From the NCBI GenBank assembly GCA_963758615.1, contig CAVWVZ010000011.1, positions 302,369-366,368 of the forward strand: a stretch of DNA of 64,000 bases. Reading direction: 5' to 3'. Positions within the stretch are counted from its first letter, which is position 1; every line of letters starts with the position of its first letter. The notes beneath the pieces were generated by a model. It was not told where the DNA came from. It searched no databases and saw only the letters and a program-made list of their open reading frames with translations. This stretch comes from an uncultured Actinomycetota bacterium (GTDB lineage: Bacteria; Actinomycetota; Actinomycetes; Actinomycetales; Microbacteriaceae). This document shows, in pieces, positions 7,740 to 22,940 of the stretch. Made by a program: the position numbers and the translations under genes.

Positions 7740-8780
7740 GTGCAGATCACGGTGCTCGCGGGTGGAGTCGGCGGCGCGCGCTTCGTGCGCGGCGTTCGAG
7801 AAGAGGTGCGACGGCGATGGCCCGACCCTCCGACAGGCTCAGTGCGGCGCGGAAATGACGGCGGCGAGGCATCCGTCACCGTCATCGTGAACACGGGCGA
7901 CGATCTCTGGCTGGCGGGCGTACGCCTGATGCCCGACTTCGACTCGCTGCTGTACTCGCTCGCGGGCGTGAACGACGCCGAGCGGGGCTGGGGCCGGGCG
8001 GGCGAGACCGAGCGGGTCGCCGCCGAGTTGCGCGAGTGGGGCGTGGGCTGGCCGTGGTTCACGCTCGGCGACCTCGACCTCGGCACCCATCTCGCGCGAA
8101 CGTCGTGGCTTCGCGAGGGAGCGACGCCATCGCAGGTGGCCGAACGGCTGCAGGGTCGTTGGCCGCTCGGCGTCCGGCTGATCCCCGCGACCGACACCGA
8201 GGTCGACACGCACGTGCTCGTCGCAGACCCCGAGGCACCCGACGGCGAACGGGAGCTGCACTTCCAGGAGTGGTGGACGCGCTACCGGGCGACGCTCCCG
8301 GCGCTCGCATTCCGGCAGCGGAATATCGATGAGGCGCGCCCCGCACCGGGCGTCGTCGAGGCGATCACCTCTGCCGACCTCGTGCTGTTCGCACCGTCGA
8401 ACCCGGTCGTCTCGATCGGGACGATCCTCTCCATCCCGGGCATCCGCGAAGCGCTCGCGGCGACCCGCGCGCCGGTCGTCGGCGTCTCGCCCATCATCGG
8501 CGGAAAGGTCGTGCGCGGCATGGCCGACGCATGCCTTCCGGTGATCGGCGTGGACACGTCCGCCGAGGGGGTTGGGCTGCACTACGGCTCGCGTGCGTCC
8601 GGCGGCCTCCTCGACGGCTGGCTCGTCGACGAGACGGATGCCCCAGCCGTCGCGTCACTCGAAGCAGCCGGCCTCGTCGCGACATCCGTGCCGCTCTGGA
8701 TGCGCGATCTCGACACCTCGGCCGCCCTCGCGGGCGCAGCCATCGACCTCGGTGCGGTGCTCGGGCCTTCCAACTCATGA
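7740..8780 (+). CDS. cofD: 2-phospho-L-lactate / phosphoenolpyruvate transferase CofD (FbiA)
   Basis: ITVLAGGVGGARF, VNTGDD, PDFDSLLYSLAG, WFTLGDLDLGTH, LHFQEWW, PSNPVVSIGTIL, VSPIIGG; leaderless GTG after TAGCGT. Confidence 0.95.
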   Translation: MQITVLAGGVGGARFVRGVREEVRRRWPDPPTGSVRRGNDGGEASVTVIVNTGDDLWLAGVRLMPDFDSLLYSLAGVNDAERGWGRAGETERVAAELREWGVGWPWFTLGDLDLGTHLARTSWLREGATPSQVAERLQGRWPLGVRLIPATDTEVDTHVLVADPEAPDGERELHFQEWWTRYRATLPALAFRQRNIDEARPAPGVVEAITSADLVLFAPSNPVVSIGTILSIPGIREALAATRAPVVGVSPIIGGKVVRGMADACLPVIGVDTSAEGVGLHYGSRASGGLLDGWLVDETDAPAVASLEAAGLVATSVPLWMRDLDTSAALAGAAIDLGAVLGPSNS

Positions 8781-8872
8781 TTCGCCGCCGCTGCGAGCGC
8801 CGAATGGGCTGACGACCCCGCGACCGGGGCGTCGATCGATGCCCCGCCGTCGGCGGGTCAGGGCAGACTGGC

Positions 8873-9826
8873 GTGGTGACCCTGATCGTCGTGCTCGCGC
8901 TCGGTTCGGCGCTGCTGTACGGCGTCGGCGACTTCTACGGCGGTGTCGCCGCGCGGCGCATTCCCGTACTGGTCGCGAGCACCATCAACTACGCGTTCGC
9001 GACGATCGTGCTCGTCATCGCATTGCTCGCGGGCGGCGGTGCCTGGTCGCAGGCCGCGGTCTGGGGCGGCCTCATCGCGGGCCTGCTGGCGGCGGTCGGC
9101 TTCCTCACCTTCTACGCCGCGCTCGCAGCCGGGCCGATCTCGCTCATGTCGCCGCTCATGGCACTGCTGAGCTCGGCCGTGCCGGTGGTGGTCGCGTTCG
9201 CGATCGGCGACGAACTCGGCCCAATCGCGTGGATCGCCATCGTGCTCGCGATCATCGGCTCGATGCTCATCAGCGTCGAACGTCGCGTCAGCGCTCGCGG
9301 CGCGCGCCCGCGCACCCTGCTCTTCGCCGTGATCGCCGGACTGTGCCTCGGCTTCGCGACGGTCGCACTCGACGCCGTGCCCGATGACGCGGGCATGGTG
9401 CCGGTGTTCCTCGACACGACACTCGGGTTCGTACTGCTCCTCGGGCTGGTCGGGCTCACGCGCACCGTGCCCGCCGTGCAGCGAGTCGTCGCCATGCTCG
9501 ATGCGCACGAGCCCGTGCCGGCGACGTCGCACCTCTCGCCGACGCCCGGCCCCGGTTCGGCCGTCCTCACCGTCGACGAGCAGGCGCAGCGAAGCCGCGC
9601 CCGAATGCTCGCCGCCGTCGCCGGCCTGCTCATCGGCGGCGCGAACGTGCTGCTCATGATCGCCCTGCACGGCGGAAGCGTCGCCGTGGTCGCGGTACTC
9701 GTGAACCTGTATCCCGTCGCGACCGTACTGCTCGCGTGGATCCTGCTGCGCGAGCGGGTCAACGCGGTGCAGGCGACCGGCATCGTGCTCGCCGTCACCG
9801 CATCCGTGATGCTCGGGATGGCGTGA
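8873..9826 (+). CDS. EamA/DMT family transporter
   Basis: About 10 hydrophobic segments, LLYGVGDFYGG, FYAALAAGPISLMSP, LYPVATVLLAWILLRERV. Confidence 0.88.
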   Translation: MVTLIVVLALGSALLYGVGDFYGGVAARRIPVLVASTINYAFATIVLVIALLAGGGAWSQAAVWGGLIAGLLAAVGFLTFYAALAAGPISLMSPLMALLSSAVPVVVAFAIGDELGPIAWIAIVLAIIGSMLISVERRVSARGARPRTLLFAVIAGLCLGFATVALDAVPDDAGMVPVFLDTTLGFVLLLGLVGLTRTVPAVQRVVAMLDAHEPVPATSHLSPTPGPGSAVLTVDEQAQRSRARMLAAVAGLLIGGANVLLMIALHGGSVAVVAVLVNLYPVATVLLAWILLRERVNAVQATGIVLAVTASVMLGMA

Positions 9827-20851: not shown

Positions 20852-21846
20852 GAACGCAACCCGGGCAGCACCTCGCGGCCGAACACGTCGAGGAACCCGC
20901 GCTGGTCACGGCCCGCGTTGTGCAGGTAGATGCGGTCGAAGCCGAGGTCGAGGTGACGCTGGATGGCCGCGCGGTGCACGTCGGGGTCCGCCGAGACGAC
21001 CATGCGGTCGGTGAAGTCCTCGGGGCGCACGGTGCGCGCGAACTGCTCGAACTCGAACGGCGAGCGGATGTCGCTTCGCGGGAATCGCATGCCCCCGTTC
21101 GGCCACTCGGTGAGCGCGTTGCGCATCGCCTGCTCGTCGGTCGCGGCCCACGACAGGTGCAGCTGCAACACCTTCGGCATCGTGTCGGCGTCGCGGCCGC
21201 CCTCGCGCGCACCCTCGCGGAAGCGCGTGAGCAGCGTCGCGAGCTTCTCGATCGGAGCGCCCGTCGTGATCATGCCGTCGACCGTGCGGCCGGCGCGACG
21301 GGCGGTGATCGGCCCCGACGCGGCGACGAGGATCGGCGGGGCGACGGCCGGCATCGTCCAGAGCCGGGCCGCCTCGAGCGTGAAATGCGGGCCGGAGTGG
21401 CGCACGTCGCGGCCCGCGATCGACCCCGAGAAGAGCTTCTTGATCAGGTCGACGGCCTCGAACATGCGGTTGATGCGCTCGGGCGCCTCGGGCCAGTACT
21501 CGCCGACGACGTGCTCGTTGAGCGCGTCGCCGGATCCGATGCCGAGCCAGGTGCGGCCGGGGTAGAGCGCCGCCTGGGTCGCGGCGGCCTGGGCGACGAC
21601 CGCAGGATGCATGCGGAACGTCGGGGTCGTCACGCCAGGACCGAGGTCGCCCGTCGTGCGGGCGCCGATCGCCGCGAGCACGCTCCACACGAACGACGAC
21701 TCGCCCTGCGACGGCACCCATGGCTGGAAGTGGTCGCTCGCCATCGTGCCGCGGAACCCGTGCGCTTCGGCGAGCGCCGAGTACTCGACGGCGTCGGCAG
21801 GGGGGAAGCGCTCGAGCATCGCGGCGTATCCGATGTGGGCTGGCAC
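20848..21846 (-). CDS. F420-dependent LLM-class oxidoreductase (TIGR03557-like)
   Basis: [45 protein letters not shown]; GTG start at 21846. Confidence 0.88.
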
Positions 21847-22940
21847 CCCTCCATCCTCCCGCAGCCGCCGGTCGAGGTAGCGACGCAGGAGCGTATCGAG
21901 ACGCACCCGCCGGTCGAGTAGCGACGCAGGAGCGTATCGAGACGCACCGCCGGTCGAGTAGCGACGCAGGAGCGTATCGAGACCCACCCGCCGGTCGAGT
22001 AGCGACGCAGGAGCGTATCGAGACGCACCGCCGGTCGAGTAGCGACGCAGGAGCGTATCGAGACCTCGACACGGGGGTCTCGATACGGCGCTGGCGCGCC
22101 TACTCGACCGACGGGAGGTGCTGGCGCGCCTACTCGACCGACGGGAGCGGCGCGCTGACGGGCTCCGGCGAGCGGCCCCTCGGCCTGCGCCTCGTCGAAG
22201 CCGGCGCGGTAGCCCTCGTCGTAGGCCTCGTCGGCACCCTGGCGGAACAGGTCGCGTTCGGCGGGCCGCTGGATCGACCGCGCGCCGGGCAGGTCGAGGT
22301 CGCCGACGTACTGGCCGAGCCCGCGCACCACCGCCACGGGCACCCCGGCCGACTTGCCCTTGACGAGCTCGGCCGCCCCCGCGATCTCGTCGGCGACGCA
22401 GGGCATCGTGACGGCGAGGGCCTTGCCCGAGGCATCCGCGTGCCCTCGGAGGTCTTCGAAGATGTATACGCCCGCGGCGCCGATCGCGATGTCGGTCTGC
22501 CCCTCGCGCCACGGCCTGCCGAGCGTGTCCGACAGGATCACGCCGACGCGCGCGCCCGTGAGCGCGCGCAGGCCGGTGGCGAGCGCCCGTGCCGACGCGT
22601 CGGGGTCGACCGGCAGCAGCAGCACCGTGCCCTCGGGCGCGTTCGAGGCGTCGACGCCTGCTGCGGCGCCGATGATGCCCTGGCGGTTCTCGACGATGCG
22701 CGTGACTCCGGACTCGTGCTCGCGGATCGCCACGACCCGCACGGTCTCGGCGATGATCGCCTGCTCGCGGTCGTCGGCCTGCACGACGCGTCCTTCGGCC
22801 TTCGAGACGATCTTCGACGTGACGACGAGGATGTCGCCGTCACCGAGCTCGGTCGCGTCTGCGATGACCGCGGCCAGGTCGTCGCCCGCCGCGATCTCGG
22901 GAATGCCCTCGACACCCTCGATGCGATACTCCACTGCCAC
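21630..22940 (-). CDS. cofE: Coenzyme F420-0:L-glutamate ligase CofE; homology ends near 22200, and as sequenced the frame reads through the REP array
   Basis: [65 protein letters not shown]; no FbiB-type nitroreductase domain. Confidence 0.9.
21865..22144. repeat. Five tandem 40-41-bp REP-like units plus an inverted cluster
   Basis: (CCGCCGGTCGAGTAGCGACGCAGGAGCGTATCGAGACsCAc)x5 from 21865 to ~22065, then GGTCTCGATAC...CCTACTCGACC with a duplicated tail. Confidence 0.9.

Follow-up and report, generated by a model that had tools for sequence, protein, structure and literature searches.

A putative deazaflavin cofactor salvage region in a Microbacteriaceae genome without a detectable FO synthase

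The DNA analysed here is a stretch of 64,000 nucleotides (contig CAVWVZ010000011.1, positions 302,369 to 366,368, of assembly GCA_963758615.1; hereafter the window) from an uncultured soil bacterium of the family Microbacteriaceae, and its positions 7740-22940 carry genes for the late steps of coenzyme F420 synthesis beside an ATP-binding cassette (ABC) importer. We propose that this region is a deazaflavin cofactor salvage system, composed of an importer, the finishing enzymes CofC, CofD and CofE, the recharging enzyme Fgd and a controlling leader RNA, and from the sequence comparisons below we give this reading a probability of about 60%. In the proposed scheme, a surface lipoprotein (9971-11035) would capture deazaflavins released by other microbes, and a BtuCD-type ABC importer would take them in, both as FO, the chromophore of F420, and as F420-0 or short-tailed F420. 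CofC and CofD would then add a phospho-C3-acid to FO to give F420-0, a short CofE would build or lengthen the gamma-glutamyl tail, and Fgd would reduce F420 to F420H2 for five Ddn-type reductases and several luciferase-like oxidoreductases (LLMs). The leader RNA probably senses a deazaflavin, and would gate translation of the importer operon.

Late F420 genes and an importer in genomes without FO synthase

The assembly has a size of 3.96 Mb in 12 contigs with 96.4% completeness, and the nearest relatives of the source genome are Agromyces humatus, A. cavernae and A. neolithicus. The G+C content of the window is 71%. Genes were called with NCBIfam and Pfam profile scans, applying the cut-offs of each family. 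An initial annotation, made from the letters of the sequence, had placed cofD, an EamA gene and an ABC cassette on the plus strand and cofE-LLM-cofC-fgd on the minus strand. The scans recovered every gene it had named, on the strand and in the order it had given; unrelated genes also lie inside the interval (13864-19042).

On the plus strand, cofD of the FO 2-phospho-L-lactate transferase type (7740-8780) reached 314.6 bits with TIGR01819 (cut-off 257). The importer cassette follows in the order binding protein, permease and ATPase: a substrate-binding lipoprotein (9971-11035; TIGR03868, 495 bits, cut-off 392.4), the body of a BtuC/FecCD-type permease (11129-12352; TIGR03869, 495 bits, cut-off 437.35, with the match beginning at 11363) and an ABC ATPase (12349-13200; TIGR03873, 364.9 bits, cut-off 372.4). 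The ATPase is 7.5 bits under its cut-off, yet more than 100 bits over the next family, and its ATG overlaps the permease stop codon (ATGA). This gene order and its linkage to cofE and F420-dependent genes are matched with the cassette described by TIGR03868, TIGR03869 and TIGR03873.

On the minus strand, the catalytic domain of cofE, the F420-0:gamma-glutamyl ligase (22940 down to about 22140; TIGR01916, 239.6 bits), starts with GTG at 22940, preceded by GAGGGGAG. The F420-family LLM gene (20848-21846, GTG start at 21846) scored 285.7 bits with TIGR03557, above the cut-off, and also 304 bits with TIGR03885, under the cut-off of that family. It is followed by cofC, a C3-acid guanylyltransferase of the 2-phospholactate/phosphoenolpyruvate (PEP) type (20156-20851; TIGR03552, 123.8 bits), and by fgd, the F420-dependent glucose-6-phosphate dehydrogenase gene (19143-20159; TIGR03554, 617.7 bits), LLM/cofC and cofC/fgd each sharing an overlap of 4 nucleotides. 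The scores of cofC, cofD and cofE all exceed their family cut-offs, and each of the three genes is present in one copy in the genome.

No cofG, cofH or fbiC gene over cut-off was found in the whole assembly: TIGR03550 gave no match, and TIGR03551 gave only a generic radical-SAM match of 21 bits. The same CofH search detected fused fbiC-like frames of 750-1160 amino acids in other genomes, so an FO synthase would have been detected here. The absence of these genes, which the initial annotation had reported for the window, is thus extended to a genome of 96.4% completeness, and the fbiC elsewhere in the genome that it had named as the contrary case did not appear. Compared with the de novo F420 pathway, CofC, CofD and CofE are present and FO synthase is absent. 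Because CofC and CofD are kept without FO synthase, FO must reach CofD from outside the cell. The genome also encodes five Ddn-type F420H2-dependent reductases and about 20 LLM genes, which means that F420 is used well beyond the cluster.

The distribution of these genes was determined in a family sample of 150 evenly sampled Microbacteriaceae genomes plus the source genome (151 in total). The cassette was present over cut-off in 44 of the 151 genomes and an fbiC-like gene in 35, with no genome in common. All 35 fbiC genomes had cofD, and 29 of the 31 genomes having cofD but no fbiC had the cassette. Among the 44 cassette genomes, cofD was kept in 29 and absent from 15. Even within two genera (g20 and g44), one sampled genome carried fbiC and the other the cassette. 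These figures are given as counts and not as a test, because related genomes are not independent. On gene content, this complementarity is what would be predicted if synthesis had been replaced by uptake.

FO might also be made internally, by an enzyme without homology to CofG or CofH that has escaped recognition. The only point in favour of such an enzyme is that cofC and cofD are kept although FO synthase is missing; the cluster holds no conserved candidate gene for it, and the cassette takes the place of fbiC with zero overlap, down to the level of single genera, as uptake predicts. We consider an internal FO enzyme extremely improbable.

A second sample comprised 50 other genomes, reached through a close relative of the binding protein (51 with the source genome). 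The fbiC-like gene was absent from 47 of the 50, whereas cofE was present in all 50, cofD in 44 and cofC in 43; the six genomes without cofD were also without cofC. The fbiC-like gene and the cassette occurred together in three genomes of this sample, A. mediolanus (L031), Microbacterium lacus (L049) and Sanguibacter inulinus (L071), and M. lacus has two copies of fbiC, three of cofC and two of cofE. In such FO producers the pump may recapture leaked FO.

The linkage of the genes survives rearrangement. In Agromyces loci, cofD lies directly 5' of the binding-protein gene, and fgd-cofC-LLM-cofE is no more than 10 kb away. Outside Agromyces, 23 of 25 cofD-positive loci have cofD/cofC next to the cassette, and the arrangement varies, with cofD 3' of the ATPase gene on the same strand or with cofD and cofC upstream. 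The neighbours of the cassette in cofD-negative genomes are cofE-LLM, sometimes together with fgd, and fgd is linked to the cluster in most loci. The ratio of nonsynonymous to synonymous substitution (dN/dS) among fbiC-less Agromyces indicated purifying selection on cofD, cofC, cofE and the transporter genes; against Agromyces orthologues it was 0.12-0.29 for cofD and 0.3-0.66 for cofC. In nearly all cassette genomes, whether or not they have cofC and cofD, an LLM of the TIGR03557 family adjoins cofE. This enzyme may be what mainly consumes or reduces the salvaged cofactor.

A conserved leader RNA before the binding-protein gene

A structured 5' leader (9860-9970, plus strand) was found by alignment and a covariance model directly before the binding-protein gene. 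The segment 9860-9976 shows 78-93% DNA identity across Agromyces, and its flanks are variable. It starts with a -10-like TACGAT (9860-9865), and carries a Shine-Dalgarno sequence, GGAGG, at 9962-9966 in front of the ATG at 9971. The fold obtained with RNAalifold consists of a short closing stem, P0 (9872-9874/9923-9925), enclosing two hairpins, P1 (9876-9882/9890-9896) and P2 (9902-9907/9914-9919), and then a third hairpin, P3 (9927-9931/9935-9939).

A covariance model (R1) built from 39 sequences matched 86 of 96 loci, always directly 5' of the binding-protein gene and on the same strand. The leader was found in both cofD-positive and cofD-negative genomes and also in Isoptericola. Compensatory changes were observed in 19 of 21 pairs, 97.2% of cells were paired compared with 88.2% after shuffling and less than 50% with the partners slid, and none of 500 shuffles reached the observed values; these figures are flattering, since the alignment had been fitted to the model. 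The source genome contains one copy of the leader. In the 151 family genomes there were 13 matches, all of them at the cassette, and cassette-less genomes gave no match.

When the single sequence is folded for minimum energy, 9906-9912 pairs with 9957-9963. This pairing overlaps the Shine-Dalgarno sequence and competes with P2, and both of its strands are invariant. It might represent an expression platform. Judged by its position and conservation, the leader is a candidate deazaflavin-sensing riboswitch. No operator motif or palindrome common to the regions before cofD, the binding-protein gene and cofE was found, and no consensus promoter or terminator was found before these genes.

The segment 9860-9976 had no match in Rfam 15 at E <= 1, including the cobalamin, FMN and other known riboswitches. 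This bears on the question whether the ABC system stands beside F420 genes by coincidence, its cargo being something unrelated, for example a siderophore, haem or a corrinoid. The permease and the ATPase do match the BtuC, Fec, Fhu and haem families as well, and the binding protein weakly matches EitA and BtuF. However, adjacency to cofD/cofC or to cofE-LLM is kept through many rearrangements and in many genera, the cassette is strictly complementary to fbiC in the family sample, and the leader resembles neither the cobalamin riboswitch nor another riboswitch of Rfam. An unrelated ligand is in our opinion very improbable.

Cargo of the importer and condition of this copy

The likely true start of the binding protein is the ATG at 9971, while the start of the open reading frame at 9941 falls inside the leader RNA. 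Its signal peptide ends in ...LAALVLAGCSG with the lipobox LAGC, and PDB 4MLZ is a close homologue (331 bits). A tree and alignment of 90 binding proteins were made, 21 from cofD-negative and 69 from cofD-positive genomes. The sequences of cofD-negative genomes were interspersed in the tree, requiring at least nine state changes, three to four of which are forced by well-supported branches. No alignment column separated the two sets among the 90 sequences, and 80 columns were at least 95% conserved, including five Trp and five Arg/Lys. A division of the binding proteins into an FO-type clade and an F420-0-type clade was therefore not found.

F420-0 and F420-n are the only forms usable by genomes left with cofE alone, and the orthologous pump must therefore supply at least one of them. 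The initial annotation had suggested that FO is the cargo. The part of this suggestion that holds is the requirement for external FO, as cofC and cofD are intact and FO synthase is absent; FO as the only cargo does not hold, since the cofE-only genomes keep an orthologous pump. We put the odds that FO enters through this pump at roughly even, and probably FO is one of several cargoes or enters in another way. Most likely, the binding protein would recognise its ligands by their deazaflavin head, with differences in the tail being tolerated. FhuD shows a comparable tolerance of ligand variation with hydroxamates. FO has been found in the culture supernatant of a producer (PMC11104420).

The initial annotation had further proposed that the organism depends on cross-feeding with FO. 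Here too the need for external FO stands, FO synthase being absent, but the dependence is possible only for F420-linked functions. Agromyces strains can be grown in axenic culture, and mycobacteria can do without F420.

Several observations weigh against the salvage reading, and we give them here together with the alternatives that they bear on. The searchable literature contained no paper in which F420 or FO uptake in Microbacteriaceae is tested or discussed, nor a measurement of transport, binding or F420 for any member of the transporter family, and a 2021 review is silent on the subject. The C-terminal dehydro-F420-0 reductase domain of FbiB (TIGR03553) was not found in the genome at E <= 0.001, and the CofE of this strain is a short form without this domain; its match to PRK13294 covers only 7-290 of 449. 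The same domain is also absent from five fbiC-positive genomes of the family sample (G057, G060, G075, G077 and G116), so on this comparison Microbacteriaceae as a whole seem to use a short CofE.

The side-chain donor was considered in this connection. Ser at the position of G163 in Mycobacterium tuberculosis FbiD marks the use of 3-phosphoglycerate (PMC8764529). The cofC product has Gly at the equivalent position, which means that the donor should be 2-phospholactate or PEP. A CofC of the 3-phosphoglycerate type, which would obviate the reductase, was thus rejected. It is also unlikely that the LLM is a substitute dehydro-F420-0 reductase, because it is kept beside cofE in genomes without cofC and cofD.

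Two further opposing points concern the way in which FO enters. The pump might carry only F420-0 or F420-n, with FO reaching CofD passively, by a riboflavin carrier or, in a subclade, by the EamA protein; the adjacency of cofC and cofD would then reflect shared regulation or ancestry. Binding proteins of cluster A usually take ligands larger than FO, which is matched with such a pump. FO also enters yeast, which has no system dedicated to it (PMC8859854). In addition, the cofE-only genomes keep the orthologous pump without a sign of changed specificity, and cofD of Agromyces lies upstream of the leader and so outside its control. On the other side, at least eight loci in several genera have leader, binding protein, permease, ATPase and cofD on one strand, so that CofD would be induced together with the pump, which favours FO as cargo; co-induction with a pump that does not carry FO would be pointless. 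The presence of the cassette in nearly all cofD-positive, fbiC-less genomes of the family sample also speaks against a pump for tailed forms only, as does the absence of EamA from most such genomes. We regard this alternative as rather unlikely.

The remaining opposing points come from this strain's own copy. In nine relatives the ATG of the permease gene, which overlaps the stop codon of the binding-protein gene, shares the reading frame of the first transmembrane segment. As assembled, the coupled ATG in the window, at 11035, is out of frame with this segment, as is the one in a metagenome-derived locus (L002). Read in the frame of its body, the permease offers no start codon (ATG, GTG or TTG) until 11420, downstream of the segment. 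Tandem-repeat analysis and reading in three frames placed the break in a variable linker at the 5' end of the permease (11036-11340), full of palindromic repeats of the REP (repetitive extragenic palindromic) type with a 33-nucleotide array at 11194-11313. A second group of REP-type tandem arrays, with units of 40/81 and 30 nucleotides, lies between cofE and the LLM gene (21860-22155) and displaces the cofE stop: the frame runs on for 170 codons to 21630, into the LLM gene, while relatives have their stop 2-8 codons beyond the shared ...AEGPL. The copy in this strain may be impaired.

From these breaks one could argue that the system is decaying in this strain, with the permease a frameshifted pseudogene, CofE carrying a junk C-terminal extension and little or no F420 acquired. 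The lack of an in-frame start before 11420 and the loss of the cofE stop to the repeats are in accordance with decay. However, the permease body lacks internal stops, shares 96-98% identity with close relatives and has a dN/dS of 0.04-0.05, and the remaining genes are all intact. Repeat arrays such as the one holding the break are plausible sites of assembly errors, and the only other locus with such a break is from a metagenome bin. It is possible that the permease break is an assembly error or a very recent lesion, and we judge decay of the system unlikely.

As a separate observation, the palindromic arrays (33, 40/81 and 30 nucleotides, with GGTCGAGTAGCG-like cores) at 11060-11320 and 21860-22155 coincide with exact gene boundaries, and relatives have in-frame repeats in the same permease linker (PVTPVT, GAAGPA).

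Related systems, accessory genes and neighbours

The closest known system is the putative F420-0 ABC transporter of TIGR03868, TIGR03869 and TIGR03873. The three-gene cassette is the same, and the host is an actinobacterium that has cofE, fgd and F420-dependent enzymes. Genomes keeping only cofE served to define the family, and PHSC20C1 (L059), one of the relatives found here, has this cofE-only arrangement. The difference is that here, as in the 29 cofD-keeping cassette genomes of the family sample, cofC and cofD stand beside the cassette, calling for FO and not F420-0. The name "putative F420-0 ABC transporter" is already given to the cassette in NCBIfam. What goes beyond this name, as seen in the genome comparison, is an apparent FO-level variant with cofC and cofD, the mutual exclusion with fbiC, one transporter family for what would be both grades of salvage, and the leader RNA. 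Neither the mutual exclusion nor the leader was found described in the searchable literature.

Compared with the canonical actinobacterial pathway (FbiC, FbiD/CofC, FbiA/CofD and FbiB), the CofC, CofD and CofE domains are orthologous here, while FbiC and the C-terminal reductase domain of FbiB are missing. BtuCD-BtuF is similar in being a type II ABC importer with a cluster-A binding protein, in that late enzymes finish an imported cofactor or precursor, and in the structured 5' leader. It differs in the class of ligand, and the leader here has no similarity to the cobalamin riboswitch.

FO is an analogue of riboflavin. The riboflavin importers under FMN riboswitches (RibU, RibM/PnuX, RibN and ImpX) likewise take up a flavin-like vitamin behind an RNA leader, but their transporter class differs and no FMN-riboswitch match occurs here; the EamA protein of the window belongs to the RibN/ImpX superfamily but is not conserved with the system. 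Folate salvage with re-polyglutamylation by FolC follows the same logic, in that the imported cofactor has a short tail or none and receives its gamma-glutamyl tail inside the cell. The proteins are unrelated, and the likeness is an analogy only. By this analogy, addition of the tail after import might aid retention of the cofactor and its affinity for enzymes.

To our knowledge, F420 is viewed as being made by each of its users, and we know of no transporter or riboswitch that has been demonstrated for it. We tentatively suggest, with less than even confidence, that about one third of Microbacteriaceae and some other Micrococcales may be deazaflavin auxotrophs in which a dedicated vitamin-type importer has replaced FO synthase. 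This importer, accepting both FO and F420, would be the first transporter for deazaflavins, the leader would be a new F420/FO riboswitch class, and the cofactor would act as a cross-fed "vitamin" in soil, salvaged at two grades, with CofC, CofD and CofE or with CofE alone. If this is true, F420 and its FO core are exchanged among soil bacteria like B12, which would explain many genomes that are rich in F420 enzymes and lack FO synthase. It would also offer tools to feed F420 or FO into production hosts, and one more riboswitch class. The locus and its roughly 180 relatives are a testable system, with a soluble lipoprotein that has a solved homologue, a leader of about 100 nucleotides and culturable strains.

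Between cofD and the leader lies an EamA gene of the drug/metabolite transporter type (8873-9826, plus strand; Pfam EamA). Only about nine close Agromyces loci have it there, separating cofD from the binding-protein gene. No orthologue occurs in the two closest relatives, and what other genomes have is limited to paralogues of 34-37% identity elsewhere. By this distribution the EamA gene is a patchy accessory insert and not a conserved part of the system. The same two facts, the small number of loci and the absence from the two closest relatives, rule it out as a conserved RibN-like carrier of FO.

A secreted gamma-glutamyltransferase (17186-19042, plus strand) is linked to the cluster only within Agromyces. 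Gamma-glutamyltransferases act only on gamma-glutamyl donors whose alpha-amino group is free, a feature that F420 tails lack. In view of this donor requirement and the Agromyces-only linkage, we rejected it as a trimmer of the F420 tail and consider it unrelated.

Five-prime of cofD, at a distance of 170-340 nucleotides, a block at 7398-7574 shows 73-85% identity across Agromyces loci; a frame of 443 amino acids on the antisense strand beside it has weak coding statistics. Directly 3' of the ABC ATPase and on the same strand, 13071-13775 is likely a small lipoprotein gene (...AVLLSCGG). It matches no family, and its position is kept in nearly all Agromyces loci, whereas the longer open reading frame antisense to it has a non-coding base composition. 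Farther along, on the minus strand, are an ABC-2 exporter pair of ATPase and permease (13864-15784) and an exported protein of 424 amino acids (15781-17055), which has a weak DUF2092/LolA-like match (E 0.07). Both are considered unrelated. The operon that they form (13864-17055) adjoins the F420 cassette, cofD or fgd in Agromyces, Leifsonia, Microterricola and at least three further genera.

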